A DNA stretch of 57,955 bases, filler included, from Dugesia japonica (Eukaryota), in NCBI GenBank assembly GCA_001938525.1. It is 6 parts of 6 records of this genome, joined end to end, with 100 filler letters (N's around TTAATTAATTAA, not from the genome) between each part and the next. Parts side by side here need not be neighbours in the genome. Positions count along the whole stretch, not along the records: positions 27,363 to 39,334 come from MQRL01635366.1; 5 more parts are not named here. One strand, 5' to 3'. The notes under the pieces were generated by a model. That model had not been told where the DNA came from, ran no database searches, and worked only from the letters and a program-made list of their open reading frames with translations. Positions within the stretch are counted from its first letter, which is position 1, and each line of letters begins with the position of its first letter. The translations under genes were made by a program, and so were the position numbers. This document shows, piece after piece, positions 8,461 through 44,333 of the stretch.

Positions 8461-8470
8461 TATATTTTAA

Positions 8471-11216: not shown

Positions 11217-11242
11217 AGTCTCCTCAAATGAATCATGCAGAG

Positions 11243-11920: not shown

Positions 11921-12832
11921 ATAATTTTATGGATTTTTTTCACAGAAATGATAACAATGAAAAATGATAACGTGTCATATTAAATAGCAATTTTCTTACG
12001 TATCTAAACAAATGAATTAAAGTAGGTAGATAGTGGCGCACAGGAACCCTTACCCAAGATTTTATGTAAAGATCAATTGTTCTAGAATTTGATTGGTCGA
12101 AAATTACGTGATTTGATTTGTCGATATTTTTAAGGTTAAGGTCAACTTTTCCTGATTTTCCCGGTAAGAAATTGAACTTTTGTTTAAATTGACAGAATTT
12201 TATGATTTTTTATTTAAATTACGTAAAATTAATAATTTTATGGATTTTTTCACAGAAATGATAACAATGAAAAACGATAACGTGTCATATTAAAAAGCAA
12301 TTTCCTTACGTATCTAAACAAATGAATTAAAGTAGGTAGATAATGGTGTACGGGAACCCCCAGGCAAGATTTTTTTTAAATGTCAACTGTTCTAGAATAT
12401 GATTGGTCGAAAATACGTGATTTGATTGGTCGACATTTTTTAAGGTTAACTGTACCAGATTTGAAGCGTTTTAAGTGTGACATTGAAATTTTGGTTTAAA
12501 TTGACAGACTTTTTATGATTTTTTATTTAAATTACGTAAAATTAATAATTTTATGGATTTTTTCACAGAAAGGATAACGTGTCATATTAAATAGCAATTT
12601 CCTTATAATTCTAAACGTGATTTGATTTGTCGATATTTTTAAGGTTAAGGTCAACTTTTCATGATTTTCTCAGTGTAAAATTAAATTTTTTGTTTAAATT
12701 GACAGACTTTTTATGATTTTTTTATTTATATCAATAATTTTATGGAATTTTTTCACAGAAATGATAACAATAAAAAATGATAACGTGTTATATTAAATAG
12801 CAATTTCCTTGCAATTCTAAACAAATGAATTA
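11921..12832 (+). repeat. About 310-bp tandem repeat containing the AGTAGGTAGATAGTGGCGC terminus motif and TGATTGG boxes
   Basis: Units start near 11921, 12233, 12545 (internally deleted) and 12734 (partial); dispersed copy at about 10060-10360. Confidence 0.85.
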
Positions 12833-14709
12833 ATTTAGAATTAATTTATTATCTTCTACTTATTGGTTTAAAAAATTGTTAAACTATGACTCTCTTCAAG
12901 AAGGGTTGTAGTTATCCAATGGTAACGCTGGGAACTATCAAAACGTGATTAACCAATTGCTGAGTATGTCTGATTATTCTGATTAGGGGTTGTCAGTCAA
13001 CTCCATGGTATGGTGTAATTTAATCACTAAAGAATGATCCTGTTTATGAAAGTAAGTACTCGTTCATTTGAGAGAAATTCGAAAAGAACTAAAGCTCTAC
13101 ATTGAGGAATTGGAAATCTGAAAATCAGTGATTGGTGACGTTAAGCATCATAGATTAACTGAAATTGAACTTTTTATGGTACCAAGGGATTGCACAAAAG
13201 CGCTTACAATTTATATTATAAATAAATATTATAGAAATCAATATGCTGAAATTGAACATATTTAAGCAAAACNNNNNNNNNNNNNNNNNNNNNNNNNNNG
13301 AAATCACGGGAGTTGTTTGTGGTGATAAATTGATAAATGAATACAATAATTAATAATCGAAACAGTAAAAGATATTAATATATATCCATGATATAAACTA
13401 CATTTATATCTACTATTTTATATTATTAGGTCATTAAATATGGCATGTTGAATTTCCTGTAGTCCACAGTTAAAATTCGGTTTCATTATTCATTGAAATT
13501 TAATATGATTAATTAAATTTGAAGTCATTACAAGTAGAAAATTCGATAGATTTATACCAAAATCGTTCCATTTTAAAGTATTTAAAAAATCATTTGGCTA
13601 TTAAGTGAAATAATTTTACTTCATTACCTCAGTCTTTTCATCCAAAAATAAATTATTTGATAGTCTGTTGGCAATTGACTCAACTTGAGGAGAATTTAAA
13701 TTTATATTTCTCCAATTAATATGATCTAAATTAATAAAATAGAGATAGAATTATTGATAGAGACAAACCAAAAGGAAAAACAGAATTGGGCATGATGCTT
13801 TGAATTAAATTTTTAAAATATAAGTAATGCAATTTTTATTCACTGAATTTTAAAAACCAACAGATTATTTAAAGTCAAAACTTAAAATGCAAAAGTTTAA
13901 ATATCAGAATCGTTATTTTGAAAAAAATACTGAATGTATTATTAAAACAATGATGTCCATTGAATTGAAATCTTTCTTAAAAGTGATTGTTGTGCATTTG
14001 TGAATGTTATAACTATCATTGCCTAAAAACATTTTGGTATGGATATGTATTCATTGATATATCGCTTTGGTTGGTTGTTGTAGTATGTATACTTGGGTAA
14101 ATGTTATTNNNNNNNNNNNNNNNNNNNNNNNNNNNNNNNNNNNNNNNNNNNNNNNNNNNNNNNNNNNNNNNNNNNNNNNNNNNNNNNNNNNNNNNNNNNN
14201 NNNNNNNNNNNNNNNNNNNNNNNNNNNNNNNNNNNNNNNNNNNNNNNNNNNNNNNNNNNNNNNNNNNNNNNNNNNNNNNNNNNNNNNNNNNNNNNNNTTT
14301 ATTGTTATTTTTTTAATTATTAAAAAAATTAATTCACTTTTTTATTTAACTATTATAAATTGCAAATTTTAACTCGGTTTTTCATTAAACTAATTATGCA
14401 TTCAATAATTGTTAAATCAGACCTTTCAGAATACACAAATTTATATTAAATAACTATTGGCGTCTTCCAGGTTCTCCAAATTCCAGCTAGTCCAAATTCT
14501 AGTTACTCCAAAAAGTATTAAAAACACTAAAATTAACCTTTAAAAACGTGTTTTCACAGATTGATAACAGATAAGATTATCGTAAAATTATTTTTGAAAA
14601 GAATTTGGGAGATTTGATTGTGAATTATTTTAGAAAAATTTATTATTTTAAAAAGAAAATAATCGCTTCTTAAATTTTTAACTTTTCTGAATTTTTCTCA
14701 GCGCTTGAA

Positions 14710-19111: not shown

Positions 19112-19865
19112 AATCAATATCCAGCATACCAAAATTACTGTGCAAATTGGACACATAAAGCTGATTGCCATTGTATTATGGAGAGATACATGCACAATCA
19201 TTTTCTGAGAAAAAGTAGTATGTATGTCCCATATATAGGACAATAGGAATAGGTTCATATGTAGATTTTGACAACGCTCACGCGCACCATTTAGAATCAT
19301 TTGCTGTAAATAAGAAGAAATTATCAAAAATAATATTAGAGAACGAGATAGATGGTCCACCAACAAAGAAAATGAAACATAACATAATGGCCGGAGGGTG
19401 GGTGGTAGGGGGTAGGGGTGTATGGTCTTTGTTCTGACATAGAAAAAAAAGTATGACTCATCACTAGAAAGTAGGCGTGGCAAAAAGATAAAAAGTGGGC
19501 GGGGCAAAAGATAAATGGGCGTGGCCAAAAAGTGGGTGGAGTCCAAAAGTGGGCGGGGCTATGACTCGTCAGAAGTTAATGAAGAAATAATGATTGCCTA
19601 GAATTGGTAAATAATGAAGAAATCTGGTCTGATTTCCAAATTAGAGATGAAATGGATGAAGAAAATATTGCTATGCAACATTTAATTGAAGAATAAGTTG
19701 GTGGCTTATTAGATGATGTAGTTATTGAAAAGGATTTATATAAATGCCATCAAATTTTAAAAGTGAATATATCGAAGTGGAATATTAATGAAATTAGTAT
19801 ACCAGATTCTATAGTTACTCAAATATTTAAAACTATTGGGGAATTGAAACAAGTTAACCGATATG
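19112..19865 (+). pseudogene. Family-B pPolB N-terminal leader relic
   Basis: YQNYCANWTHKADCHCIMERY, YVDFDNAHAHHLESF...DGPPTKKMK and EE*VGGLLDDVVIEKDLYKCHQILKVNI align with the 28154-28670 translation. Confidence 0.75.
19390..19572 (+). promoter_or_regulatory. G-rich cluster of GC/CACCC boxes flanked by TGACTC motifs
   Basis: AGGCGTGG, GGGCGGGG x2, GGGCGTGG and GGGTGGAG at about 20-bp spacing, GATAA x2, TATGACTCA at 19452 and TATGACTCG at 19560. Confidence 0.45.
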
Positions 19866-19899
19866 CAACGAGGCATATCAAGAATTGAAACAGGATTTA

Positions 19900-20110
19900 A
19901 TAAAAACACCGGTACTAAGTTTTCCAACAGAAATAAAGATTGCATATTAGATACTGATGCAAGTTTTAACAGCATTGAGGCTGTCCTATTACAACTGGAT
20001 GAGAACAGTCGAGAAAGAGTGGTCGCCTATGGTTCCCATGCAATGAACGCTGACGAAAAAGAATATTGCATAACCAGGAAAGAATTGTTGGCAATATACT
20101 ACTTTTTTAT
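19900..20110 (+). pseudogene. Gypsy RT/RNase H fragment
   Basis: ILDTDASFNSIEAVLLQ...ERVVAYGSHAMNADEKEYCITRKELLAIYYF. Confidence 0.85.
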
Positions 20111-20540
20111 CTACCTACTTGAAATTATAACGGCGAATAAATTTAAATTCAAGGAAAATAGTTAAAAATAGTAAACATGCAAAAATGACCCACTGAAAAC
20201 AATTGAATGCAAAGAAAATGTAAGTCATTTTTACGAAGACTAAACTTTGCTTCGTTTTACATTGATCATATGATTTGAGCGTGAAATTAACATTTAACAT
20301 AATATTTATTATTAATAATAAAAAATTACAAAAACAAAATGAAAGATTTATTGCATAACATTTATGAACTAGAACAATAAAAAATAAAATAATTTCATAT
20401 CAAATCATATTATAATGCTAAAAATATGAATAGTATTAAAAATAATAATTTTAAATTTAATTCTAATAATAATAATAATTATTATTATTAAAAAATAAAT
20501 AACGCTATTTAAAATAAAAATATGTTTTTCCTTTTTTTAT

Positions 20541-20582
20541 TTTTGTATATTTCGACGGATCAACTGTCATCATCAGACAAAA
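20541..20582 (-). ncRNA. Minimal hammerhead ribozyme-like motif (second sequence family)
   Basis: Reverse complement TTTTGT-CTGATGA-TGACAGTTGATCCGTC-GAAA-TATA-CAAAA. Confidence 0.6.
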
Positions 20583-21236
20583 TAAAAAAATGAGTTAATT
20601 CAGTCTATTTTATTTTAAGAATGCTATATAAATGTAGATATTAACTAACAAGATATTTAACAAGTTAAAATTATATTTCATAAAATTGCAATATTAAAAC
20701 AAATCAAATTCATTTTAAATTTTTGAATATTTAATTTTAAATATTCAATAATTTGAATTTAGATATATTTAAATATTATCATTATTTTAAAATATCACAT
20801 TCCTCCCTTTGCTTTATTGATATTGAGGATTAGGATTTATTGTCATTCTTTCTGGATAACGTCTTTTGAGATCGCTCTCATTTTGTCGGTCAGATTGTAC
20901 TGGTAAGGCTGTTTTCTGTTTACTGCTAACTGATATTTGTGTGCTCCATGACTTGTAGGAAAGTTCATCTCTTGGTATTCTTTTGATTTGGTTGTAATTC
21001 CTTTGAATTAAAGTGTTTCTGTTTTCATTCAGCAAAGTGTAAGCCCATTCATTAATTTTCTTTATTACTTTAAATGGTCCAATATATCGCCTTTTAAAAC
21101 CATCATGTGCATTGTTTTTCATTAGAACTTTATTATCAATTTTAATTTCATCTCTAAATTGATATTTATCATATTTAGCTGTTGTAACTTCATTATGTTC
21201 TTCAATATGTTTTCTTACATGGCCATGAATATTNAT

Positions 21237-21376
21237 TTTATAATTACAATTATTGTGAGAATAATTGTTGGACTTAAACATTAATCGCATTTGAGATTTC
21301 TTTAAAATAAGAAAAAGCTTCGATCAACGTTTTTTTGATTATTATTTTGATCGAAGCCTTTTCTTATTTTAATGAA
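21237..21376. mobile_element. Short palindromic Penelope-type insertion inside the Gypsy integrase
   Basis: 12-bp TSD ATGAATATT(C/N)AT at 21225-21236 and 21377-21388 duplicates integrase residues MNIH; family head plus short inverted arms. Confidence 0.85.
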
Positions 21377-23783
21377 ATGAATATTCATAATATTTCTTTT
21401 TATTTGTTCTACATATTGATCAGAATTCTTTGCGATGTTCGTTTCGCTCCTTCCAGCATTCCACATATTGATTTTCGGTTTCCTCCTAAATACTATTTCA
21501 TACAGAGTGTACTTAGTCGTTTTTTGTGTTGTTGTTCGTAATCCATATTCTATTATTGGTAGCACCGTACTCCAATCTTGAATTCGCCTGTCTTCTAGTA
21601 CTGAACTAATCATAGGTTTCGCAATTCTAAATAATCTTTCTACTAATCTGTTTCCTTGAGAGTAATATGGAGATGAAAATGTTTTCACGATTCCCAATTG
21701 CCTACAATATTTCTGAAATGCACCTGAACTAAAAAACTACCACAATCCGAGTGAATTCGACTAGGATTTCCAAACTTGGATATCCAATGTATCCAAAGAG
21801 CTTCACATATGTCTTCAGTTGTTATTGTTCGTAATGTAATCAAACATATAAACTTTGAAAAATAATCCACAATTCCAAGAATATATTTATAACTATATTG
21901 CGTTGGTTTAAATGGTCCTGTAATATCTATTGCAATGCATTGAAATGGTTCTTTTTCGGATATATTCTGTAATGGTGCTTTAATTCTTCCGTCAATATAT
22001 TTATGCGCGATACACTGTTTACATTTTAATAGTTGTTCTCTTATATTTTTATCTATACACGGTCAATAATACTCATTTTTGATAACTTCTGTTGTTTTCT
22101 CTACTCCTGGATGACCCAATAACTTATGGTATTTCCCATTTAAATGCTTGATAATCTGTTCGTACCACAAATTGTGATCCCATTAAATAGTGCTTAAACT
22201 TGAGGACTAACACATATATTGCCAGCAGCTCTTTTCTTGTAATGCAGTACTCTTTCTGACTTTTTGTTAGTATCTTCAATGCATAGTATAATACTCGTTC
22301 CTCGCTATCTTGTACTTGCGAACGTACAACACTAATTGCGCTGTAAGAAGCATCTGTATCCAAGATATATTTTCCATCCTTTGTTAGTAAAGCTAGCACT
22401 GATGGTTCTGTCAACCTTTTACGTAGCTTGTAAAAATATTCTTTATTTTCATCTGTCCACTGAAATTTGTTTTCTTTCTTTAGCATCAAACTAAGAGGTT
22501 CTGATAAATTTACATAATTCTTTATGAATCGCCTATAATAATTACAAAACCCTAAAAATGTTTGAAGTTCTTTTCGACATTGAGGAATCTCCCATTTTTT
22601 GGATTGCTATAAATCTTATAAAAATCTGTTGCAATTCCATTTTTAGTTATTATATGTTCGAGATATTGTATTTTTCATGTAAAAATTTACATTTATTTGG
22701 CGCTAATTTAAGTCCAGCTTCTTTCATTATGCTATTCTACAGTTTTACCGAATATTAAAATATCGTCTAAATATATTACGAACTTTTTCAAATTTTCATT
22801 TCTCAATACAATATTCATAAGCTGCTGAAATGTCGCTGATGCTGAGCATAATCCAAACGGCATTCTAGTAAATTCGTATTGTCCAAACTTTGTACTGAAT
22901 GCTGTTTTTTCCAGATTTTTTTTAGCTATCNATACTTGGTTATATCCACTTGAAAGTCTAGAGTTGAAAAATAGTTAGCTCCAGCAATACTGTCAAATAT
23001 TTCCTCTGGTGATGGTATTGGAGATATTAGTCGGTTTGTTTTAGCATTCAGTGCCATATAGTCAACACACATACGGTCATCACCGTTTTTCTTTATCACC
23101 ACTAAAATAGGAAAGTTCCATAGAGAAGTACTCGGCTTTACAACACCAGCATCTATAAAATCTTTTACCACATGTTCTACTTCTTCCTCGAGTCATTTTG
23201 GTATTCTTCGTGTTTTGAAAGCAATTGGTCTGCTATCGGTTGTTTCTATTTGATTTTCAATCATATCAGTCTTATCCACATCCATCTTTTATCGACTAAA
23301 TACATCTTTATTCCTTTCAAGGATTGCTAATGTTTTGATCACAACGTAGTAATTGTTTGCAACTTCCATATCATTTTTAATTTTTTGCAGTATATTGTCT
23401 GTAATTTCTTCATCTGATCTTTGTTTTTCAGAGGCCATATGTATAAGTGATACTTTTTCAAACAATTATTCATTTTGATTAAACTCTTCTACATATCCGA
23501 GTGTAGTTCCAGTGTTTAGAGTTTTACATCCGCTTTCTAACATATATATTCTTTCCCACAAGTATCCATTATTATCTATTGTAATTCCATCTGTTACTAA
23601 ATGTTTCCGCATGGCCATTTTCTCTTTATCTCNNNNNNNNNNNNNNNNNNNNNNNNNNNNNNNNNNNNNNNNNNNNNNNNNNNNNNNNNNNNNNNNNNNN
23701 NNNNNNAAATATTCAACAATTTCATTTATATCTACGTTTTAAGATACTGCAATTCTATAACATTGATTGTTATTATAAATCTC

Positions 23784-28090: not shown

Positions 28091-28153
28091 AAAATTTTAC
28101 TAATCTCTATAAACAATAAAAGAATAACTTTATTTATTTAAGAAACTTTCAAA

Positions 28154-31100
28154 ATGTATACAAACTATTGTGGAAGTTCAAGTCATAACAAAGACTGTCA
28201 CGATATAATGGAAAATTACTATAGTCTTATTTATTGTGGGAAAAATATTATGTTTGTCCATACATACACAGAGTTTTATAAGGCAGATATACATCAATTG
28301 TCTCAATTTTATGAAAAGAAGAGAATAGTACTGAAGAAATTTCTCGAAGGACCTCCATGTAAGAAGTTTAAAGCAGAACCGGGAGTTATAGTCATTGAGG
28401 ATGATATTATTATCAAGAACAAACTAGTCAAACCAGAGGTTATAGTTATTGAGGATGGTATTGAGGAAGAAATGGACTGGAAAAATATCAAAATAATCGA
28501 AGAACTAAATGAAGAGGACTTTGTTGATAAAGATGATGATGCAGAAGACGTATTGCAAAAATATTTGCAAGAAGAAGAAATACAAAAAGGTGGATCCATA
28601 GACGAATCTGTTATTGAAACAGACTTGTAAAAATGTCACCAAATCTTGAAATTAGATGTTTCAAGATTTAACANNNNNNNNNNNNNNNNNNNNNNNNNNN
28701 NNNNNNNNNNNNNNNNTAAAATTATCGAAGAAATGAAGGATATAAAAATCCAGTTTGAAATTCATGTAGAAAGATCATAAAATAAAAGTTGTCATTTATC
28801 TAATAAAGCTGTACTACCTAGTGATAAGTTTTTCAAAGATGTAATTAGGGTATTAAATGAGAAGATTGTTGTAAAAAGCGAGTTAGGAAGTAGCTGGACA
28901 CTTAGTAGGATATTAGGAATAAACCTTAAATTGACTAAAATTAGCAAAATAAGTAGATTGTCAAATCGCAGTCATATTCCGACGCCTGAAAATCTTGTAA
29001 AGAAACAAGCAATTGTTAACGTCAAAAACATTGATGATAAATGTTTCATATATAGTGTTCTCGCCATTCTAAAACAAGATTAGTAGACAAAAAACATGGC
29101 GATCGTATAACACAATATAAATGGTTTATGCCAGATCTTGTTTTCAGTGAAAATGACATGCTTATGAAATTGATGAATATTCCCAAATTTGAAAAACAAA
29201 ACCCTGGATTGAGTATAAATCTACTATCATGGAATACAAACTCAAATAAAGTTGATGAAGACGAGGTTGTCATGAAACACCCAAACCTTGATATAATTCA
29301 CAGATAAAAGTTGAGGGTGAACAAAAGATAAATTTATTATTACTTAAAGATGGGGATAAATTTCATTATACTGCTATAGTTAATTTGAATAGACTTATGA
29401 ACAGAGACATTAAAAAAATGGAGTACAAATTCGATCAAAATGGTGTCCTAATTGTTTAAACGGATTCTGTGACAATATTGCATTCAAGACCTATGAATCA
29501 ATTTGTTAGAGAATACGAACAGGAACAACACTTTTTACAATGCCTGATGAAAAGGAGTTAATGTTTAGAGATTATTCAAAAACTGTGACTCCACCATATG
29601 TCATTTACGCTGATTTCGAATCAGTGCTAGAGAAAGATCTTGAACATTACTAGAAGCATCTGCCGATATCAGCAGGACCTTTGTTAGTAAATAATTTCAT
29701 TAACGAATATCATTACCATACATTTATCGGATCAGACTGTGTTTACAATTTCTTGACAATGATTGAAAAAATTACCAAGAACATTGTGTACCCTTACTAT
29801 GAAGAAAATGGCAAGAAAAAGTTAAAAAAATCACACCGGAAGAAGAAATTAAATTCAAAAAAACGACTATTTGTAATTTTTGCAAGAAAGATTTAGTAAA
29901 ACCGGTTAGAGACCATGATCATTTCACTGGTAAATATGTTAGTGCTGCATGTTTAAAATGTAATATTAGTAGAAAAATCAAATATGATTTACCAATAGTC
30001 TTTCATAATCTTAGAGGTTATGACTTGCAACATATATTGAAATATGGACTCAGTCAATTTGCACATTGGAATATCTCGTGCATACCTACTACAAGCGAGA
30101 AATTCTTATGCTTGATTGCACACTATGGAGACTTAAATATAAAGTTTATCGATTCAAATCAGTTTATTAATAGTTCATTAGATGCAGCTGTTAAAACAAT
30201 TTAATCACTCCATTAACATCCAAGGAGTTTAATGACAACAGAATCATCAAATCAAAGGGAAATTTCCCATATAATTTTGTTACTAGCCTCACAGTGTTGG
30301 AAGAAACTGAATGTATGCCACCAATATGGAATGGTGTCATCAAAGAATCGTATCAGAAGACTCTGGAAATGTGGACTATTACTAGATTACATGATGATTT
30401 ATCTAAAACTAGATGTATTACTTCTAGCCGACTTTTTTCAACAATTTCAAACCAAGTCGCTAGGACACAATGGACTAAAACCGCTAACATTCTTTGAAAT
30501 TCCAGGCATGAGCGGGGCATTAGCATTGATGATCCTAAAGGATCCCATCGAATTGCTTACAGATAATGATATGTTCACATTTTTCGAGGGAGGAATCAGA
30601 GGTGGACTTACATTTGTTAACAAACCTAATTTAAAATCGGTCGAAGACACTGATCTTTTGTACATCTATATAAATAACTTATATGAATGGGCATTAAGCC
30701 AGAAATTATCATATATGGATTTTCAATGGATACATATATGATTAGAGCAAATATTGGAAGAGTGTAGAACATTAGATCTAGAATCATTAACATATGGTTA
30801 CACAGTAGAAGTTGACATTGAAATACCGGTCGAGTTAACCGATTATTTAAGCAATTTACCTGTTGGAGTCGAACATCAGAGCCCACCTGGAAGTAAGGTA
30901 AAGAAGCTGTTATTAACACATAATACCAAACTTAATTATGTTGTACATTGGCGATTATTACAACTGTACATGCAACTAGGTGTTAGTATTGCTAAAATAC
31001 ATAGAGCTGTAAAGTTCACACAAGATTATATTTTCAAGAAGTATATAGATGAAAATACTGATCTAAGATCTAAAAGAACATCAGACCTAGATAAGAATTA

Positions 31101-31856
31101 TTATAAGCTTTTAAACAAAAGCTTGTATGNAAAAACAGTAGAAAATCTAAATAAAAGGATGAATCTTAGACTGTGAAATTCAGAGAAAAAGCCTATTACA
31201 TACGCTTCGAAGCCAGGCTTTAGGAAAACAATTAAAATAGATCAGGATTTAATTGNGGTATTGTTGAATATGGATAAAGTTTGTCTCAATCTTCCTAGTT
31301 ATATTGGTCAAACAGTGTTGGACTTGATTAAGTTAAGAATGTATCAGTTAAAATACACCTAACTTGAGAAATATAGGACAGATGAAAATTTTATCATAAA
31401 TATATTGGGAGGAGATACCGACCGCTATTTCCTGGAGGTTAAAGGTATTAGATTGNAAAGATTGTTAAAACTGATGGTTCAGGATGAGTTGTTGGACACT
31501 TCAAATTATGATGCAAAACACCCGCTTTACAACAACAACCTAAATTCAGTAGTAGGGAAATTCAAAGACGAAAGCAAGGGTAAAAGATACAAAGAATGAG
31601 TTTTTCTGAGACCAAAATGTTACAGTCTCCCTAGTGAAAAGACCAGCATGAAGGCTAAGGGGATAGCATTAAAAGATACCGATTTAACACACTAGTCGTG
31701 TCTAGATTGTTACAATAACAATCAATCGATCTCAGTTGAAAAATTTAGGATAGGTACAATAAACCACTAATTGTTTAGTTTTAAGAGATCAAAAATAGCA
31801 TTAACCAACAATGATGATAAGAGAGAATGAACAAACGAAAACACAAGTACCTACTA
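28154..31856 (+). pseudogene. polB: Full-length decayed pPolB, Polinton family B
   Basis: Leader (28154-28630), ELGSSWTL (TP), AIVNVKNIDDKCFIYSVL (vOTU), YADFES, RDHDHFTGKYVSAACLKCN, FHNLRGYD, YLKLDVLLLAD, EGGIRGG, INNLYEWA, YKLLNKSLYxKTVEN, GGDTD, GKFKDE, LRPKCYS; many stops and frameshifts. Confidence 0.92.
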
Positions 31857-32186
31857 ATTTTTATTTCCGACTTCAACTTAAATATCATTTAATTCAACAA
31901 AGGAACATTTGCATCACCAACAATTTTAGGTTCGCCTATATTACTTTAGTTGAACATTTGACAATGATTAGTTATTATTTTTGGGTTTCTAATTCCTTTC
32001 GATATTTCTTTTTTGTGAACTATATTTATATTACTTTATGTATATGTTTGACTACATAATCGAAATGTTTTTCTCAGGATTCTTTCAAAGGTGACTCTTA
32101 ATATGTGTTTCCAGTGAAAATTTAAATGATTCATTTTTCTTTAAAATAAAAGTTTTGAATCTACAATAACTCTAAATTACCCATTT

Positions 32187-32523
32187 TTATAATAAATTTA
32201 TCAATCCTAATATTGCTAATGCTATTGGTAATAATACAGCAATGAATCTACCCTTTTGTTTATAGATTATTTTTCTCATTCATTTTTTATTCCTATTTTT
32301 AATAATTAAATGCAACGGCCTTTTATGATGTTGCAAAATAAACATTTTATTTTGGTTAAGAATTACATTTACTCGAAAAATATTTACAAAAACCTCTAAA
32401 AAAACATAAATAACAAACTTTGGAAATGACTGTAACATTTTTATTATAGACTTTTGTGGAGCCTTAACTTATAATTTAAAATAAGGAAGACTTTGTAGAA
32501 AGAAAAGATTATTGTTTTACCAT
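32187..32523 (-). pseudogene. Polinton basic core protein (QxGGF-type) relic
   Basis: ...LQSFPKFVIYVFLEVFVNIFRVNVILN...HHKRPLHLIIKNRNKK*MRKIIYKQKGRFIAVLLPIALAILGLINLL*; resembles Polinton core proteins ending in QKGGFLxxLLP. Confidence 0.65.
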
Positions 32524-33324
32524 AATTTTATCATACCAATGATTAATATTCGGTTGCTTAAGTGAGTAAACCATGCGCAAAATCAGCAGCGTCACTTCAC
32601 AAATATCAAGAGAATAGCGATGATAAGAAAATTACCTGGGTGCTATACCAATTGGATAAACGCTCTTGGGAAGCTCAGATTGCTGCAGAAAAGTCAAGAA
32701 TCGCCAAAATAAGAGAATTCTGAGAGAAAACTGCATAATCTCATGACCAAGAACGGGCCTNGAAGGCTCAGCTTGAAACCTTTCCGGAATTGTTAGAACA
32801 GTCACATAAACGCAAAAATTGCCTCATCAAAGAGTAGTGAGATAGTGGCGCATGGGCACAATTTTTTAATAAGTTATCGCGTACCCCCCTCCCCCGGGAG
32901 GCACAAAAACACATTACGCAGGTGCGGCGTTTTTTTACATAATTTTTGTGCTTGTTTTTTTTCTAAGATTTTTGGGATCAAATTTTTTAGTTAGAATCAA
33001 ATTCTTTTTGATTGGATCAGTTATTTTGATCCTGGGGTGTGTGTATTTTTAAATTTTAAATTTTGTGTGTGTTTGGTGGTTTTTAATTTTAACATGTAAA
33101 TATTGCGCAGAATCACCTCTTCGACATTTTTAATAGATATATTTTTATCGTGTAAATATCACAAAGACTCCCCTCTGTGAAGTTTTTTTATAGATATATT
33201 TTAGACTGGCCAATATGTTGCAATAATATCAAAAAATATCAAGAAGATCTCCACATTTTAATACTGAATGCAACACAGATACACTGAAAATAAAATTGTG
33301 ACGTCATAACCACTAAACAGAAAA

Positions 33325-33705
33325 ATTTCAAATAAATCTTATAAAATCTGATAATTAATTCTCTTTCCACACATATCAACCTCCACCTCCCGAAAAAAAT
33401 TTTAACACACTTATACTACTTACAAAATAAACCAGTCAAATTCAAGCCCATAAAATAAAATATCGAAGCACATTCGACAACCACCATTTTTCCAATCAGA
33501 TTACCTCTCCAAAAACCCATTAACCATTTAATTCCATCAACCACATACAAACCTACAGCCTCCCTAAAAACCACCCACGATAACTTATACGACTGTGTCC
33601 ATGTGCCACTACTCTTGTAGCGAAAACCATTTAGACCTACTTTTAAAAACCACCATAGCAACCCAAACACATACAAAATTTAAAATATAAAAATACACAC
33701 ACACA
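33325..33705 (+). repeat. Direct repeat of subterminal region 36484-36985
   Basis: Shared AAATTTCAAATAAATCTT..GATAATTAATT..CTTTCCACACATA, CACACTTATACTACTTACAAAA, AAATTCAAGCCC, CACGATAACT. Confidence 0.8.
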
Positions 33706-34226
33706 AGTTGATACTATCCAGAATCTACAAGAATGGTTTAATTCTGACTACGCTGCCCTATTTGATTTCGATGAAGAAGCTTCGCCTGTGTTTTAAAGTT
33801 ATTCTGTAAATAAAAAACTTCAATCTTGTTGAGTCTCTCTAACTCACCAAGTAAAATTGTAAGGGGTAAAAATTGTAATAAAAATGACAATGAACCCGAA
33901 CCAAAACTATGCAGGTATGCACTGGGACTATGGGTTACGAGTCACTGACCCTTTATTAAAAATTTAGCATGCACGCTTGATCAAATTTTTAGCATGGTTC
34001 TACTGAACGATTATACTGGTTTTTCAACATACAGAGTTATACATACAATCATAGTCACAAAATGTAACATACAATTTATGCAATTTTTATTTGAATTTTC
34101 CAAAAACTAATTGATTCTTTCAGATGTTTATTAGCATACAAATACGATAACGAAATTTTCTTGTTACTAAACATTCGGATCTTCCAAATATTTAATTACA
34201 CACAAACTTATGCCTTATTTACAAGA

Positions 34227-34425
34227 CTATTGCATTTATTAAAAATTTATTTTAAAAAAATTAATAAAAACCAAAGTGGCGGCTAAGTTGAGTTTTAAAA
34301 ATTTCTTTTATGGCGAAAATTTATTAAAAATTCTCCGACGCATGATTTTCAGTGTATGTGTGTTGCATCTGAATTGCATCTAAGTTGCATGCCTGTTGCA
34401 TTTATTAAAAAAATCAATAAGAATT
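34227..34425 (+). repeat. Left arm of a ~200-bp inverted repeat flanking the TBP-like gene
   Basis: Reverse complement of 35601-35802 with high identity. Confidence 0.9.
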
Positions 34426-34650
34426 CCCAGGCATGCAATTTTTAATGAAAATCTCATTACCGATGCAATTTTTAATAATAAATCTCAATAGTGTTGTAAT
34501 TTTTAATAAAAAATCTCAATAGCTGAGAACATTTCTTAGAACAAAGTGATAGAGGCATAGATNTGTTTTCATAAAAATCATAAATTCATGGCGTATTAAT
34601 ATTTTTTTGTACTTGAATTGTAAAGGTTTTGCATTCGTGTTGCGAATTTT

Positions 34651-35140
34651 CTAAATTTCTTCAATCAAATTGATTAAATCTGAAGTAATGTTATTCAAAT
34701 ATCCTTGAAAATACAAATTTTAAAGCTCTATTATTACTATTTTTTTGTTGAGAACACATTTACACATAAAGGGTCATATTTTACAAGTCTAAGAGCTGGA
34801 AATAACTCTGGTTTAAACCAACAGTTGACTACTCTTAATAATTTATACAAATTTGTTGAGACTCCCATATTTACGACAATGGATAGCGATTGAAATTGAA
34901 AAATTTTTATATCATACTGGTTTAAATCAAGCGGTTCCAATGGTTTCTTACAACCCATTATTCTACATTTTCCTGATTTTAAGTAAATAATTGTAAATTT
35001 ATCACTTTTGACTTGGAATGGACAGGGTTTAACCGTAAGAAAGCTCATTTTCTTTGTTACTTCTTGCGGCTTTACACCTCTGTAATTAATATTGGTTATA
35101 TTAATTAATGAATTAAGAGGAACATTGGGGTTTTGATGGT
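34651..35140 (-). pseudogene. TATA-box-binding protein (TBP)-like gene, intronless, lightly decayed
   Basis: Two TBP half-repeats: INITNINYRG...FTIIYLKSGKCRIMGCKK and IFQFQSLSIVVNMG..NLYKL...WFKPELFPALRLVKYDPLCVNVFSTKK/IVIIEL (cf. TBP ALIFSSGKMVCTGAK and YEPELFPGLIYRM.PRIVLLIFVSGKVVLTG). Frameshift at ~34740, one stop, start codon lost. Confidence 0.78.
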
Positions 35141-35249
35141 ATTATTTTAATTTATTCGTTAAAACAAATACATAAAATGTAATAAATTAAAGAAAACTAA
35201 GATAAGCAAATGATAATCAAATTATTCTAAGTAAAAAATACCATAATAA

Positions 35250-36400
35250 GCCTTATATTACACAGTTGCTATGAAAATAATACATGGTTGTTATATAAAT
35301 AATACATGGTAACTAAGCAAATAATATACTCATAAACCTTATAATACAGGGTTACTATGTATTAATACACTCAGAATCCTTATATTACATGGTTGCTATG
35401 TAAATAATACAAGGTAGCTATGCAAATAATACACACAAAAATCATATATTAAACGGTTGTTATGTAAATATTACATGGTACATAAGCAAATAATATACTC
35501 GTAAACATTATATTACAGGGTTACTATGTATTAATAATCAAGACTGTCCATTATCTTGCAATAATATCAAGACTACCCTATATAGCAACACATGCCTAAT
35601 AATTCTTATTGATTTATTTTAATAAATGTAACAGGTATGCAACTTAGATGCAACTCAGATGCAACACACATACACTGAAAATCATGCTTCTGAGAATTTT
35701 TAGTAAATTTTTCTCCAAAAAAGAAATTTTTAAAACTCAACATAGCCACCACTTTAATTTTTTATTAATTTTTTTANAATAAATTTTTAATAAATGCAAT
35801 AGGTATGCAACTCAGATGCCATGAGAATGCAACACATATACACTGAAAATCCCATGCCTATAAAGTTTAGACTGTCCCATCACTTGTAAAATATCAAGAC
35901 TGTCCCATTTAAAGCAAAAATATGTTAAAAAATCAATAATGCTTCAATGTCTTTTAAAAATATTAAGACTCCCCAATGTCCTGCAATAATATCAAGACTG
36001 ACCCATTTAAAGTAAAATATAAAGAAATAATCAATAATGCTTCAATTAATACTGTCCAATCTCTTACAAAAATATCAAGACTGACCCATTTACTGCAAAA
36101 TATCAAGTGTGTTCCAACCTATGCAAAATATAGAGACGACCCATACCATGCAAAATATCAAGACTGTTCGATATCTTGTAATAATAGCTTACAAAATATC
36201 AAGACTGCCCATACCTTGCTAAATAAAGAGACTGCCCAGTGCAAAACATCAAGACTGCCCCATTCCATGGTAATTATAGAGACTCCTCCATGCAAAACAT
36301 CAAGGCTGCCCCATACCATTGTAAATATAGAAACACTCTGTTACTAAACACTCTGTTACTAAATATCAAGACTGCTCAATCTCATACTTAAATATAAAGT
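35250..36400 (+). repeat. Two degenerate subterminal minisatellites (TACATGGTTGCTATGxAAATAA ~22 bp; AAATATCAAGACTGCCCAT ~27-29 bp)
   Basis: Visible recurrent cores at 35250-35535 and 35535-36400; ORF 35976-36347 is a translation of this repeat. Confidence 0.8.
35601..35802 (-). repeat. Right arm of the ~200-bp inverted repeat flanking the TBP-like gene
   Basis: Reverse complement of 34227-34425. Confidence 0.9.
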
Positions 36401-39334
36401 CTGCTCAAAAAAAATTTAAATTTCCAATGCAAAAATAAATTTTTGAATTTCCCGCCAAAAAAAATTTAAACTTCACGCCCATAAAATTTCAAATAAATCT
36501 TTAAAAATTTGATAATTAATTGTCTTTCCACACATACCTTTGTCCACACACTTATACTACTTACAAAATTCAACCAATCAAATTCAAGCCCTTAAAATAA
36601 AAAATTCAAAGCACATTTGACATACAAAATCTTCTCTTTCACATTACCTCTCAAACCACACATCAACCAAAAAATTACATCAACCACGTACAAACCTATA
36701 ACCTTCCAAAGAACACCCCCACGATAACTCATACCACTGATCTGATGCGCTACCATACTTCTAGCAAAATCCATCCATCCTAGCCCATAAGTCCTTTAAA
36801 CAATATATAGACCAAATTTTTGTCCCACAACAACCAAATCTTAAAATCTAAAAAAAAATTATTTCCAAGATCTCCAACTCCTCCTCGAGTATAAAACACT
36901 TGTTTCACACACACACAAACTAGTTTTGAAAAAACACCTTAACAATCCAAACACACACAAATTTTAAAATTTAAAAATACACACTAACAGGATCAAAAAA
37001 ATATGATCCGATCAAAAATTTTTTGATCCCAAAAATCTTAGAAAAAAAACTAACGAAAAAATTATTGCACAATCGTAATGTGTTTCAGAGCCCCCCGGGT
37101 GGTGGTGCGCGATAACTTCTAGTGTTTTGAGGCGCTACTATCTATCTGCTAACCATATTATTAAAAAAATATATTATGTCTATTTTTTTTCATATAAATT
37201 TAATTTTCTCAGATAGGGGTTATTTGGATTATTATGATAGATTATTTTTTCATCTTATCAACTTTAATAAAACAACAGTGATATTGAATAAAGGTTATGG
37301 ATAATTGTGGAATTCTTAATTTAACTAATAAAGTGCATTATAGTGGCCCGAATTTAGAAAATGCGATACTGAATAAATGTTACATTGTCTGCACAAAAAT
37401 GAAAAATAAATTACTTAAACTAGCATTGATTAGTCCGTTGATAGTAATTGCCTAGGCATAAAATAGAATCACATTGTTTGATTACTATAAGATATTCTAT
37501 GTAGTCGGAATTTAATTTGGCGCTAATAGGGTTAAAAAACATCAATAATAAATTCATTAATATTAAATTGAATTAAAAATTCAGTGTTTTATTATAAATA
37601 GCCTATACAAAAATGGCAATAAATTATATAATTANNNNNNNNNNNNNNNNNNNNNNNNNNNNNNNNNNNNNNNNNNNNNNNNNNNNNNNNNNNNNNNNNN
37701 NNNNNNNNNNNNNNNNNNNNNNNNNNNNNNNNNNNNNNNNNNNNNNNNNNNNNNNNNNNNNNNNNNNNNNNNNNNNNNNNNNNNNATTATTTAAAAATCA
37801 TGTTGATACTGTCTCTATAGTTAATAGCTGATCACTAATTAACTTTCAACGTTTTAAAATTTTCTTAAATTAAAATTAACTTAAATATTTCATTATTATG
37901 TAATTATAATTATTTATTCAGAATTTCTTTTCAATATACTGTTTAATTAATCAAGTCAAATTTTAATTCTTTTTATTAATTTTCAATATTACTATTAATA
38001 ATCTAATAATGTCATTCTGATAAAAATAGTATAACATTGTACAATTTTAGAAATTCATCTAATCATTACTTGTTCCTAAGATTTTGTATAATTTTTAAAG
38101 AATTGTTTTTGTAAAACCAAAGACTTTAGTTTTAAGTTCAATGAGTAAATCTGAAAAATCTAGTTATATGTTATGGTTAGAAATATTAAATCAAAGATGT
38201 ATTGAATTTGAATAATCCTTCATTTATAATGAATTTTTATAGCTTCAATTGGTTCAAATAATCCACAAATTCGAAATATAAAACAGAGTGACAGTGTTAA
38301 ATTGTGTACAGATAATTCTGATCTTATGAAAACCGTACATAATCCAAAAACTTCACATTATAAAAGTCAAGAAGAGTACTTCGATGAAATAATTTTGATT
38401 AAAAAGGTTTTAAATAAATGATTTTTTCTAACTTCTTAAATACTTATGTAAATTAGCATATTTGATATTTCACCCACTTAAGTTTGTAATTAACATTACT
38501 CATTAAATTTGATAAATAAAATTAATAAATTTTAAGATTGTAATAATTAACTTTCACTACTATGTTTTTAAAAAATTACAACTTAAAATCTTTGCAACTT
38601 TGAATTGTTTATATTTATTTCAATAAAGTTAAAACGAGAATAATATTTTCATGTGTTTTTGTATTTAATGTTAAGCTGAAAATAGTACTTTGGGAAAACC
38701 GCAATTTTCAGATTTTTTAATTGGTAGTTAAAGAGTGGTTAATGCCGTCTTGATGAAAAAAGTAAAATATTGTACAGTTTTAGAAAATCATCAAATTATT
38801 TCTTGTTAAGATTTTGCGATTAGGTTGAGAGGAATATAGACGTTTTTGTATTTAATTTCAAAATAACTATTTTCAAGATTAAAAAAATATTTTTTTTAAA
38901 TTAAATTCTATCCAGAATAAGACTTATAAATTTAAAATTCTTCCAATTTTACATCACAAAAATTTTTCAGATCTACAATTTTTTAAGAATGTATAATTAT
39001 ATTATAGCATGTTATTGTTAGACTGGAATTTAAAACTCATAACTACATGTATCTATGAATATTTAGGATATTGTTGCGTTAAAGGGAGAAAATGAAATTC
39101 TCAAATGTAAGTTACGGAAAACTGATGAAATGTTGATCAAAAAGGTATGAGCTATATATACAATGCAGTATTAATTTTTTTATTTAAGGACAAAGAATTA
39201 ACTGAAGTTTTAAATGTAAGTCTTGTAATACGGACTCAATTTTTAATATTTGTTAATATTATTTTTCATGTAATATTAGAAAACCTACTAAACCACATGC
39301 CCCTCCCTCTGCCGGCAAAGTGGTTTGTTTTTTT

Positions 39335-39434: not shown

Positions 39435-39494
39435 TCATCGTAATGTGTTTCCGAGCCCATGCATGTGCGGGCAGTGCGCCACTATCCCCCTACT
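39435..39494 (-). mobile_element. Right terminus of an AGTAG-type TIR element abutting polB mid-gene
   Basis: ATCGTAATGTGTTTCCGAGCCC...GTGCGCCACTATCCCCCTACT, similar to 37072-37150. Confidence 0.7.
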
Positions 39495-40945
39495 ATTATA
39501 TGATAGTATATTTGAAACTAGATGTGTTTTTGTTAGCCGATTTCTTTCACCAGTTCAGAAATAAATCATTGGCACACAATAATTTGGAGCCATTAACATT
39601 CTTTGACATCTGGATTGATGTCATTAAATGAGCCAATTGAATTGTTGACTGATAATGATATGTATACCTTTTTTGAAGGAAGTATAAGAGGTGGGCTAAC
39701 ATTTGTAAATTAAAACCATGTTGTTAGTAATGAAAACACAAATTTATTATACATCGACATCAACAATCTATATGGATGAGCATTAAGTCAGAAATTGCCC
39801 TATGCCGATTTCGAGTGGGTATATACTGGATTAGATTCAGTATTGGAAGAATGCAGAATAGGAGATCTCGAATCCTTACCATATGGTTACACATTAGAAA
39901 TAGATATGGTTATACCAGCAGAAATCCAGGGTGAACTGAATGATTTACCTGTTGCAGCAGAACATCAAAGTGCTCCAGGTAGTAAGGTGATAAAATTGAT
40001 CCTGACTCACTACCCAAAAGAAAATTATGTCATACACTGGAGATTGCCGCAAATTTATTTGCAATTGGGTGTACAAATAACAAAGGTACTTAGAGGTCTA
40101 AAGTTTAGCCAGGAATCTATTTTCAAACAATATATAGATGTGAACACTAAATTAAGATCAGAGTGTAAATCAGAGCTGGATAATAATTATTATAAGCTTT
40201 TAAATAATAGCCTGTATGGTAAANCAGTTGAAAATTTAAAGAAGAGAATGAATTTAAGATTGTGTAATTCAGCTCAAAAATTGATGACATATACTTCGAA
40301 AGCTGGATTCAGAAAAACAACTAAAATTGATGGTGATCTAATAGCCGTTTGGTTGAACAAAGAGATTGTTTGTTTGAATAGATCGAGCTACATTGGTCAG
40401 TTTTTACTTGACTTAAGCAAGCTAAGAATGTACCAATGGCAGTACATTTTGCTTGAAAAGTACAGAAAGGAAGAAAGTTGTGAGGTAAATATTGTAGCCG
40501 AATAGCTTTTACGAATAGCTTTTTCTTGGAGATTAATAACATAAAATTGGAAAAACTAACCGGATTAATGGTGAAGAACCAGCTATTGGACACATCCAAT
40601 TACAGCACAACCCACCCCCTTTACAGCAACGGTTTAAATTCAGTAATTGGCAAGTTCAAGGATGAGAGCAAAGGGTAGAAATTTCAAGAATGGATATTTT
40701 TGAGACCAAAATGTTATAGCTTACTTAGCGAGAAAGAATCAATGAAAGCTAAGGGCATAATATCAAAAATTACTGACATTTATCATCAGTCATACCTTGA
40801 CTGTTATAATAATAATGAAACGGTCTCAGCTTAACATCATCAGCTCTACAGTATTAAGAATCAAAGGATAGCTCTTTTCAATAGGAATGATAAGCGAGTA
40901 TGGATAGGGAAAAATGTAAGTTTACTATATGGGCATTATATTGTA
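39495..40945 (+). pseudogene. polB: pPolB C-terminal half, Polinton family B
   Basis: YLKLDVFLLADFF, EGSIRGG, YIDINNLYG*A, YKLLNNSLYGKxVEN, GKFKDESKG, LRPKCYS, NDKRVWI...YGHY; colinear with 30390-31856. Confidence 0.92.
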
Positions 40946-41487
40946 ATACTTTTCCTCAATCAAGATCAAACCAATTCAATCACGCTCAATCCAATCTACC
41001 TCAAAGTATGACTTTATTTTATATTAGATAATATTTTAAATTTTTATATTTAGGAAAAAGAAGAAAATTGTATATATGTAAACGTGTAACGGTCCTCTTT
41101 AGGACCATAAATATTGATTGAGATTATATTAGTCGTCATTAGGGCTCAAAATTATAATTTCGATAAAGAAATTTAAACAGAGAACATGCAATACAGATAC
41201 AATTCAAGAAAAAACTATGAGTCATACACGTGCAACTTGAATGCAAGTTAAACAAAGACATTGTAATGCGAGTGCAACTAGAACAAAAAGCATGAGTAAT
41301 ACTTATGCAATATGAATACAGATTAATCAAAGACAATTCAACATGAATGCAAGTACACAATGAGGATNAGTGCGCAATAAGAATGCAAGTTAAACAAAGA
41401 AAATGAAGTTGCAACAAATGTCAATATAAATAAAATCGTCATTTTTCATTTTATCAACAATAAATTTAGATAAAGTTATAGATGATA

Positions 41488-42529: not shown

Positions 42530-44333
42530 ATTCGACCTTGAATTATTTCTGTTTATTAGAATGTTTATAAGATACCGGGGCTATAATTAACGTTATGAGT
42601 TTGAGTTGTTTTAATAAATTACGATAAATTCATTTAGAAATGAGTGATGAAAGATTGCGTTGTGCTACACTATCTACCTACTATTATCTTTACATAAAAA
42701 TGTATAGTAGNTAGATACGTGCAACACTGGAACAGTGCATTTAGTTGGTTTTTTAAAACATTCAAAAAAGGTTGAAGAACAAAAAATTTGAAGAACCAAA
42801 AATTTGAAGAACAAAAAATTAAAGAACAAGACCCCCCCGACCAGACTAATGCAAGTGTTCCAGTGTTCTACCTACTACAAAAATTGTTGGAAAAGTTAAA
42901 ATTGGAGTGATAATTGATGAAGTTTGCAAAGAGATTACTTTCTTAGTTGCTGAAAGAGTNNNNNNNNNNNNNNNNNNNNNNNNNNNNNNNNNNNNNNNNN
43001 NNNGATATCAGCTTATGCGAAAGGTTAACAGCAAAACGGATAAAAAAGTAGAAAATTACATTTGTAATATTGAAGCAAAATTTGGCAGACAAATTTAAAA
43101 AGGTGAGCGATTAACAAGAGCTTTAAATATTCTGAAGATTAAAGAGAATCAACAGTTATTGTAAATAATGGAAAGTAAAGAAGGTGCTTTTATGGCAGAT
43201 AATTGGGATGTAGGATGCACACATCTTATAAGACATAAAATAATCACAAGTGGTATTCCAATCAATGTAAAACCGTATAGGCAACCAATGAACTTAGAAC
43301 CTAAAATTGAAGAAGATATCCAAAACCTTTTCGAGAATAATATTATCCGGAAATGCAACTCTCCTTGGAATACCCCATTGATTTTCGTTTGGTAAAAGGA
43401 AAGAAAGAACATAAGAATATGTTTGGATTTCAGACAATTGAATATTGTAACGAAAAGACAAGCCCTTTTGATGCCTAATGTTGATGAAATGGTGGAAAAG
43501 TTAGATGGAGCTAAATATTTTAGTTTAATAGACTTGGGAAATGAGTACTATCAGGTGGAGCTCGAAGAAGAATCTCAAGAAAAAACGGCGTTTTCAACGA
43601 AGCACGGATAATATTGTTTTAATAGAATGAATCGTCATTTGGAATTGATGCAGCAACAGGTACGTTTCAGGAGATGACACATAATTAGTAGAGATGGTGT
43701 TAGAACTGACCCGTCTAAAATAGATGCAATAAGAACATTTGGCAAACCTAACTATGTGAAGAAGCTGCGAAGTNNNNNNNNNNNNNNNNNNNNNNNNNNN
43801 NNNNNNNNNNNNNNNNNNNNNNNGGAATTTGTAATTATTACAGGAAATTTATAGAAAACTACGCAAGAAAATCAAGAATCTTAAAACAGTTGTGTAGTGG
43901 ACCAAACCACAAAACCTTAGAATGGAAAGATGAAATAAGCGATACTTTTGAGGGTCTAAAGAAATCTCTAATGCCTGCACTAATATTGTGTTTTCCAGAC
44001 ATAAACAGAGAATTTATATTAGATACAGATGCCAGTTTTGATACAATTGGAGCAGTATTGTCACANNNNNNNNNNNNNNNNNNNNNNNNNNNNNNNNNNN
44101 NNNNNNNNNNNNNNNNNNNNNNNNNNNNNNNNNNNNNNNNNNNNNNNNNNNNNNNNNNNNNNNNNNNNNNNNNNNNNNNNNNNNNNNNNAAACATTACTT
44201 GTACGGTAGAAGATTTACTCTTAGAGCAGATCATAAAGCTCTAACCTTCATGATGACGACGAAGAAACCAATTACGTCGCAATTTCAGACATGGATTAAT
44301 TATCTGAGTAGTTTAGAGAAAACTGAAAAATGA
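42530..44333 (+). mobile_element. Degenerate Ty3/Gypsy pol region
   Basis: Protease DTGAIINVMS (42571), RT (PINVKPYRQP, SPWNTPL, LDFRQLN, YFSLIDLGNEYYQV, KTAF), RNase H (FILDTDAS, HYLYGRRFTLRADHKAL). Confidence 0.9.
42706..42876. mobile_element. 170-bp miniature element with AGTAG(G)TAGA termini
   Basis: Left AGTAGNTAGATACGTGCAACACTGGAACAGTGCATTTAGTTGG; right reverse complement AGTAGGTAGAACACTGGAACACTTGCATTAGTCTGG; extra orphan end at 42667-42682. Confidence 0.7.

Follow-up and report, generated by a model that had tools for sequence, protein, structure and literature searches.

The closest described systems to the locus reported here are the Polintons, Mavericks and adintoviruses (Polintoviricetes), and relatives of the locus carry the same gene set: a DNA polymerase B of the protein-primed type (pPolB), rve integrase, A32 packaging ATPase, double jelly-roll capsid protein, and, in some loci, C5 protease. 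Polintons and Mavericks are also like the present element in their AGTAGT end motif, given as the Maverick end motif in the accessible text of PMC8097293, and in the decay of most copies (PMC8097293; bioRxiv 10.64898/2026.06.19.733378, in part). In the sections available to us, TBP is absent from the eight vertebrate core genes listed for Polintons and adintoviruses, and no promoter word is described (PMC8097293; PMC8502044; bioRxiv 10.64898/2026.06.19.733378). The visible legend of Figure 5 in PMC8502044 places 'TBP' in at least one virus with an adintovirus-like PolB, not necessarily a member of the present family. Among the matches listed, which do not cover subscription papers, none describes a TBP family of Polintons or a promoter word belonging to it.

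Cellular and archaeal TBPs (PF00352; 7o4i_O, 2z8u, 1cdw, 1mp9) have in common with this family the full-length two-lobed saddle, the L5.1 phenylalanine of both lobes, and the C-lobe EPELFP stirrup. However, they are ~180 aa long, whereas family members have 150 aa and ~20% identity to them, with helix H2 mostly missing, the N-lobe stirrup shortened, and a C-lobe Asn replaced by Ser. TBPs of Nucleocytoviricota and other dsDNA viruses resemble the family in having the fold without the N-lobe regulator signature, but their TFIIB contacts have diverged and they often come with a TFIIB of their own, whereas the family keeps the TFIIB-contact glutamates at 96-99% (PMC7221094, available portion; BFVD matches). 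ORF24 of KSHV, one of the beta/gamma-herpesvirus TBP mimics of the TATT late-promoter system, appears alike in its viral TBP fold and in a variant TATA word before virion genes, the early genes using ordinary promoters; it has an additional domain with which it contacts Pol II directly, depends on five partner proteins, and is reported to be incompatible with TFIIB binding (PMC12529657, as excerpted). In contrast, the 150-aa family protein is a bare saddle with no extra Pol II-binding domain, and it retains the TFIIB glutamates.

The window analysed is a stretch of 57,955 nucleotides from Dugesia japonica (GCA_001938525.1), filler included. The original prediction placed at 32833-37150 a nested inverted-repeat element with a compact intronless TBP-like gene at its centre. 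That gene is borne out, though broken: a minimal TBP-like gene with 79 homologs lies at 34654..35099 on the minus strand, and ORF 34740-35138(-) matches Pfam TBP at E 2.9e-4. The intact relative P0001 aligns to 35099-34740 with 71% identity (tblastn), and a second tblastn match, 34743-34654, is in a different frame, with a frame break near 34740; there is no ATG where relatives begin. From the P0001 matches in two frames and the missing ATG, the gene is read as intronless, ~150 codons long, and broken, and the window's copy is a non-functional fossil. Over 6 kb, 182 reads came from RNA run X10 and 295 from X14, on both strands and nearly all less than 95% alike. The 0-5 p53 half-sites observed around the gene resemble the counts in shuffles, with no enrichment.

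The Polinton polB and core gene said to adjoin the TBP gene were located as remnants. A decayed pPolB of the TBP-bearing clade occupies 28733..31851 on the plus strand, with 43-47% identity to loci L008 and L015; compared with L015 it has 13 stops and shifts frame several times. It is followed on the minus strand by a weak fragment of c6, a conserved Polinton gene that is possibly the minor capsid (31886..32125; profile E 0.012; tblastx to L008), and by a broken core gene of cluster c4 with a QKG-x-F motif (32199..32495; tblastn E 3e-18; profile E 1e-17; alignment). Cluster c4 we take to be the core protein named pX. The gene order, TBP > pX > c6 > convergent pPolB, matches that of L008 and L015, which among the eight pPolB-bearing loci are nearest to the window's pPolB and TBP, the tree support for the TBP grouping being 88 only. 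No match to ATPase, integrase, or capsid was found in 27-37 kb and the remaining genes are broken, so the window's copy does not hold a full intact Polinton gene set. As had been noted from the sequence, the interval contains no transposase, in that no integrase-profile match falls inside it.

A profile of 69 family sequences matches PDB TBPs at E 1.5e-21. The AF2 model of P0001 (pLDDT 95.6) gives Foldseek TMq values of 0.70-0.79 and, against TBP, a VIA Z of 13.4 with 149 of 150 residues aligned at an rmsd of 2.6; as modelled, the intact relative is shown to fold as a two-lobed TBP saddle. Both the fold and the far divergence from cellular TBP had been anticipated. Among 142 family members, F41 and F117 (the L5.1 phenylalanines of the two lobes) and F101 (the C-lobe loop phenylalanine) each make up 100% of aligned residues, while the N-lobe loop F21, the fourth intercalating position, is 83% conserved in a shortened region of low-confidence alignment. 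The TFIIB-contact glutamates E97 (C.L3.2) and E99 (C.L3.4) stand at 96% and 99%, and S72, the C-lobe Asn-to-Ser change, at 92%; the interface roles of these residues are taken from the accessible part of PMC7221094. The spacing from strand 5 of lobe 1 to EPE has a median of 48 (n=120); 10 of the 12 references have 60-64, and the remaining two are regex misfires. The N-lobe H2 region is ~13 residues shorter, its long helix is absent from the P0001 model, and the family lacks most of this helix, which in eukaryotic TBP/TRF bears a basic patch for Mot1, TAF1, Brf1, and TFIIA. TBP clusters in the ESM Atlas carry mixed taxon labels drawn from very few members and were set aside as a guide to host range.

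The predicted linkage to pPolB and capsid genes appears in metagenome loci, where TBP is neighbored by packaging ATPase, integrase, double jelly-roll capsid, and pPolB genes (rve+chromo, pPolB, C5 protease, and A32 ATPase by identity; the capsid is cluster c8, Foldseek E 1e-14). At least one Polinton core gene is present in 42/80 TBP loci and in 27/35 of those of at least 3 kb. All five loci of at least 10 kb have three or more core genes, and pPolB and an rve integrase are found in 5/5. The adenovirus-type protease occurs in 13/80 loci and in 2/5 long ones, the other three possibly being cut short. No end-to-end TIRs were found in seven longer TBP loci, which look incomplete, and the window's TIRs gave only weak matches (E 0.001-0.004) in 2 of 81 loci. 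Six TBP-linked pPolBs form one group at an SH-like support of 100 (FastTree), and the group of L055, L058, L061, L063, and L066 appears in the tree of TBP as well, with support of 98. A single clade holds the 24 family rows, separate from 10 cellular and giant-virus ones (FastTree), and the 48 unsaturated pairs out of 66 have a median dN/dS of 0.17, which at the level of sequence shows purifying selection on the family. The fold, the linkage to the Polinton gene set, the separate clade, and the purifying selection support the proposal of a Polinton lineage with its own TATA-binding factor. An IMG/VR search with the TBP alignment returned one unrelated giant-virus-type TBP (L001), and scans of viral contigs with capsid, ATPase, and the window's pPolB gave no matches. 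Among 112 ORFs scanned (14 of them non-TBP, from L001/L098), there was no Pfam TFIIB and no RNA polymerase family, many of the ORFs being unassigned and the loci incomplete.

Scored on the very loci from which it was derived, the word YATAAACR stands before 98 of 120 virion, packaging, and integrase genes and before 0 of 63 TBP genes. It is strand-specific, ~30-50 nt ahead of these genes; its form TATAAACA is present in 67 of 253 upstream windows (3.1 expected; antisense 0), and in L063 14/14 sites are on the coding strand. Upstream of ORFs, the word was found in 63/148 cases in TBP loci vs 5/280 in 22 TBP-less loci, controls of which several are redundant (L085 and L087 come from one contig, and L093 and L094 share the same pPolB). 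Since motif and TBP are both markers of one clade, finding them together counts as a single evolutionary event and lends no independent support. Of 121 sites, 73 lie inside an upstream ORF and only 48 are non-coding; in pX, TATAAACA can encode Tyr-Lys-Gln. Over the whole window the word shows no enrichment (12 vs 18.8 expected). Canonical TATAWAW stands upstream of 26/63 TBP copies.

It is proposed, with a probability of roughly 0.65, that the interval is one end of a Polinton/Maverick of the minimal-TBP clade, broken and likely rearranged, and that the TBP is likely the element's own late-promoter factor. A TATA-like word before capsid and packaging genes implies that a TBP-like protein likely switches them on, and a herpes-like late-gene switch operated by the viral TBP is the likely prediction. 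The TBP gene would be expressed early by host machinery, as the TATAWAW boxes suggest. The viral TBP would then bind YATAAACR through its conserved phenylalanines and altered saddle (C-lobe Asn to Ser) and, with its retained EPE stirrup, recruit the host's TFIIB and Pol II; lacking most of N-lobe H2, it would escape Mot1/BTAF1, TAF1, Brf1, and TFIIA. The outcome would be an early/late cascade like that of herpesvirus TATT promoters, from one 150-aa protein. The distribution of the motif makes the originally suggested redirection of, or competition for, host transcription less likely than a private promoter word driving the element's own virion genes. Extended to an animal-type Polinton clade with two-stage transcription, a 150-aa TBP on a private YATAAACR box, use of host TFIIB, and escape from regulators, with short TBP derivatives that in this genome may have spread well past the range of full elements and could supply the factor in trans, the model is tentative, at slightly under even odds.

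Alternatively, the Polinton TBP could be a decoy or repressor that titrates host TFIIB or blocks host or early promoters, with YATAAACR serving host TBP or some other factor. It may be that host TBP recognises TATAAACA too, the word is one base off the canonical TATA box, and loss of the co-activator helix alongside retained TFIIB glutamates would also suit a dominant-negative mimic. The TBP-less L098 also has a borderline excess of the word (7 sites vs 3.2 expected, reached in 11/200 shuffles), with 3 sites on the plus and 4 on the minus strand. However, the three mappable DNA-contact phenylalanines are invariant, and the word is sharply limited to virion, packaging, and integrase genes, absent before TBP, and scarcely found ahead of the ORFs of TBP-less Polintons; such a role is considered unlikely.

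A Polinton-type terminal repeat at 36947..37150 (minus), ~2 kb upstream of the TBP gene, likely marks where the TBP-bearing element naturally ends. Inward of it are a subterminal block (36483..36984) and, still upstream of the TBP gene, minisatellite arrays (35237..36363; 22/41/64-bp and 28/51-bp units). The inner inverted repeats were found as described, with arms at 34227..34435, followed by a 31-bp minisatellite at 34433-34523, and 35591..35802 (91%), as were the minisatellites, in four arrays (33087-33202, 34433-34523, 35265-35530, and 36069-36350). The spacer at 33703..34226 is mostly low-copy and without a match in a six-frame Pfam scan. The left repeat belongs to a short Polinton-end derivative (32833..33702, plus) with an AGTAGT terminus, a TIR, a direct copy of the subterminal block (33322-33700, 75-86%), and a 40-bp inverted arm (33037-33076/33663-33702, 95%). 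A plain nested inverted-repeat element would have no such direct copy, and 32833-33702 is likely a separate insertion. Low-copy stretches lie on both sides of it and look coding; neither gives a Pfam match, and no longer homolog turned up for the left one, so these stretches do not establish an interrupted gene. The outer TIRs held up in part: there is inverted similarity (32871-33076/36947-37118) and the left end reads AGTAGT, but the arms are 72% alike (BLAST: 171/245 columns, 8 gap runs), and their tips differ (AGTAGTGAGATAG vs AGCAGATAGATAG). There is no target-site duplication at the arms (flanks TCAAAG vs AACCAT). The longest of the inverted repeats that involve N gaps were rejected as assembly artefacts.

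We infer one internally deleted Polinton at ~28100-37150, with the derivative lying within it. A discrete TIR-bounded satellite, as first envisaged, is doubtful given these arms and flanks and the Polinton genes that continue normally beyond the left repeat; on the sequence comparison, the TIRs likelier belong to separate insertions, which the original prediction had itself named as counting against it. It would also be improbable, at odds like those of the decoy, that the interval belongs to a non-autonomous TIR-TBP-TIR family mobilised in trans, its left arm internally inverted. In its favor, two Polinton-type ends face each other around the TBP gene and its 91% inner repeat, and the 95% inverted pair could have flipped the block at 33322-33700. 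In DNA run X1, summed depth over TBP is 1.1-2.6e5, ~10x the pPolB end (2e4), and 34428-34629, downstream of TBP, is as high-copy, a pattern equally expected if short derivatives bearing TBP formed a family, though summed depth is not copy number and depends on likeness to a decayed reference. Against it, depth falls to 63-267 over 33822-34225, vs 1e5 in adjacent bins, marking a low-copy spacer inside, and same-clade pX, c6, and pPolB lie in normal order left of 32833. Chance capture of a processed pseudogene of host TBP/TRF, as the intronless, broken gene and its eukaryotic-type EPELFP motif might suggest, is refuted by the linkage data and has almost no probability left, given the family's single clade, ~20% identity to cellular TBP, conserved Polinton context with dN/dS of 0.17, and high repetition in the host DNA run.

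Under the preferred reading of a Polinton end whose TBP acts at late promoters, the finding bears on how these elements make particles. Maverick virions have not been observed (PMC8097293, in the text available), and the accessible portions of the cited Polinton literature do not state how Maverick capsid genes are activated. A conserved factor and promoter word offer a direct test of a late, virion-producing phase. If the reading is true, the family would be a very small natural TBP, the herpesvirus late-promoter strategy would have been reached independently, and the protein and its word would be a candidate orthogonal promoter-factor pair.

The window is AT-rich, with a GC content of 15–34% per kb, and decayed mobile elements are abundant in it. 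An ORF at 34740–35138(−) has a weak Pfam match to TBP (E 2.9e-4), and its nearest intact relative, the 150-aa protein P0001, aligns at 71% over 35099–34740 and then in another frame over 34743–34654. Because P0001 aligns across two frames of window DNA, the gene is intronless and broken, and it also lacks an ATG at the start position used by relatives. The original prediction of a compact, intronless TBP gene thus stands for the missing introns and the TBP match.

The predicted TBP fold is borne out on an AlphaFold2 model of P0001 (pLDDT 95.6), whose full length matches TBP structures from yeast, human, plants, and archaea (Z 11–13.4, against 7.2 for the first non-TBP row). The PDB chains matched by a profile of 69 family sequences all contain TBP (35 sequences; the best match has E 1.5e-21). 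In the 90% collection, 79 of 85 candidates are homologs, as are 113 representatives at 50%; most are 140–200 aa long. Across 142 members of 130–380 aa, with shorter matches and one repeat protein left out, there is no variation at F41, F101, or F117, the glutamates E97 and E99 are kept in 96% and 99%, and the C-lobe Asn is replaced by Ser in 92%. Reference TBPs have ~13 more residues following strand 5 of lobe 1, a region in which the P0001 model predicts no long helix. According to one TBP study, the two glutamates serve TFIIB/TFB binding, the basic patch of N-lobe H2 is the contact for TFIIA, TAF1, Brf1/2, and Mot1, and viral TBPs have diverged at both (PMC7221094). The Polinton family has kept the glutamates and lost the H2 patch.

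Of 328 stretches in a metagenome scan, 130 were confirmed, and the best 80 of these were kept as loci. A Polinton core gene occurs in 42 of these best 80 and in 27 of the 35 of at least 3 kb, while all five of at least 10 kb carry ATPase, pX-like protein, integrase, capsid, and pPolB genes. Neighbors were identified by Pfam and the capsid by fold match, its fold resembling the PBCV-1 Vp54, iridovirus, and mavirus capsids. The six pPolBs linked to TBP group in a single clade, apart from the intact second pPolB of the window and from 16 pPolBs of loci with no TBP match. Of the two subgroups, one is recovered in the TBP tree at 98 and the other, containing the window ORF, at 88 (both trees by FastTree, with long-branch warnings). 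Of 66 pairs, 18 are saturated; the remaining 48 have a median dN/dS of 0.17, and the few ratios near 1 that were noted come from almost identical pairs. Linkage to pPolB and capsid genes, the single clade, and this ratio support the predicted Polinton lineage with its own TBP, and both the TBP gene and its origin in a Polinton are solidly established. Accessory genes near TBP vary, and include dual-specificity phosphatase, LRR, RING finger, C2H2 finger, KilA-N/DUF3627, PLA2-like, and WWE domain genes (metagenome loci L011, L012, L054, L055, L057, L063, and L066).

The interval 32833–37150 had been described as a discrete, TIR-bounded element of nested inverted repeats. Both the inner inverted repeat (91%) and the minisatellites were confirmed, but the outer inverted similarity is a poor 72% and has no TSD. 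Polinton genes also continue past the left boundary, with a pX-like gene (E 1e-17), a weak piece of c6, a conserved Polinton gene (E 0.012), and a convergent pPolB, so the discrete-element framing is probably wrong. The left end starts AGTAGT, which is among the Maverick end motifs cited in PMC8097293, and the minus-strand order from 37150 is terminal repeat, subterminal block, minisatellites, and TBP. Metagenome loci L008 and L015 share the gene order of the window locus, which lacks their ATPase, integrase, and capsid genes; among eight pPolB-bearing loci, both the decayed pPolB remnant at 28733–31851(+) (43–47%) and TBP (42–43%) are closest to these two. The piece at 32833–33702 contains a 95% inverted pair of its own, carries the right-end block as a direct copy, and is followed by low-copy DNA. 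Low-copy, coding-looking frames flank it at 32532–32832 and 33707–33793 (+); no family was found for either, nor a longer homolog for the left one. Within 39436–40948, a Polinton-type end (AGTAGG..GATAGTGGCGC, minus strand) adjoins another decayed pPolB of the TBP clade (68% DNA identity to the first) midway along its length, at junction 39494–39497, so Polinton-type ends occur inside Polinton genes here. The best reading of the interval, with a probability of roughly 70%, is a Polinton that has suffered deletions and holds a separate end-derivative. Less probably, the interval belongs to a true satellite family, which would also fit run X1 of DNA sequencing, in which summed depth (not a copy number) is 1.1–2.6e5 over TBP vs. 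2e4 at the pPolB end and 13–63 in low-copy bins; this depth shows that the window TBP gene is highly repeated.

Other elements were observed as well. Another Polinton, at 1132–8312(−), belongs to a different clade: its pPolB frame runs uninterrupted for 1292 codons, includes endonuclease VII and zinc finger domains, is only 24–25% identical to the TBP-clade enzymes, and is followed by three long ORFs. A ~310-bp tandem repeat (10060–10368 and 11919–12833) has a unit containing AGTAGGTAGATAGTGGCGC, nearly identical to the terminal motif of the 32833–37150 interval, and one more such motif lies near 42684 (42654–42687). A MITE-like element at 9245–9940 encloses an AT-rich minisatellite between arms of 160 bp that are 94% complementary, and decayed Gypsy-like pieces lie at 19848–22606 and 43150–44333 (RT-RNase H, integrase, SH3). 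Long inverted repeats at the N gaps (8471, 17636, 27263, 39335, and 48786) were rejected as false products of TTAATTAATTAA padding. In IMG/VR, the giant-virus-type contig L001 encodes a TBP of conventional type (182 aa), heliorhodopsin, and ribonucleotide reductase, as well as a family B polymerase split into parts that are separated by an endonuclease VII ORF.

Among 253 dereplicated stretches of 120 nt in front of conserved genes, 67 contain TATAAACA (3.1 expected; antisense 0) and 113 the TATA-like word YATAAACR (antisense 3), with 48 of 121 YATAAACR sites 31–40 nt before the ATG. YATAAACR precedes ATPase (22/24), pX (16/18), capsid (9/10), integrase (10/14), and PLA2 (9/11) genes, 1/3 pPolB, 0/10 zinc finger, and 0/63 TBP genes; TATAWAW lies upstream of 26 of these 63, mostly at −50 to −31. 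The C2H2 genes near TBP, which lack YATAAACR, could be early regulators. YATAAACR is upstream of 63 of 148 ORFs in 16 TBP loci of at least 5 kb, vs. 5 of 280 in 22 control Polinton-type loci without a TBP match. L008 and L063 hold 13 and 14 sites, counts that exceed 200/200 shuffles, and almost every site is on the strand of the genes. YATAAACR does not precede the genes of the 1132–8312(−) Polinton, two of which have TATAAAA upstream. Against the promoter reading, 73 of 121 sites fall inside an upstream ORF, and the complete TBP-less element L098, which in capsid and ATPase score comes closest among the controls, has 7 sites, borderline and on mixed strands. Since the gene and the word mark the same one clade, their association is a single event. 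L098 itself (1–12321) is a TIR-bounded 12.3-kb Polinton that also carries a weak PC4 co-activator-like ORF (E 0.003).

TBP is named in a figure legend of PMC8502044 for an adintovirus-like virus, and the supplement text does not mention it. The available part of a 2026 PLV framework preprint (bioRxiv 10.64898/2026.06.19.733378) mentions neither TBP nor TATA, and no conserved Polinton TBP or promoter for it appears among the literature matches listed. The main rival to a promoter function is that the Polinton TBP acts as a decoy. The candidate late-promoter role is likely. The proposed TBP-YATAAACR switch would parallel KSHV ORF24 and TATT promoters (PMC12529657), although the Polinton protein is a bare saddle with no known partners. 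For this late-promoter role, it is proposed that the small TBP would be produced early by host machinery, then bind YATAAACR and recruit host TFIIB and Pol II, thereby turning on the virion, packaging, and integrase genes, and that it may lie beyond the reach of factors that evict or sequester host TBP.
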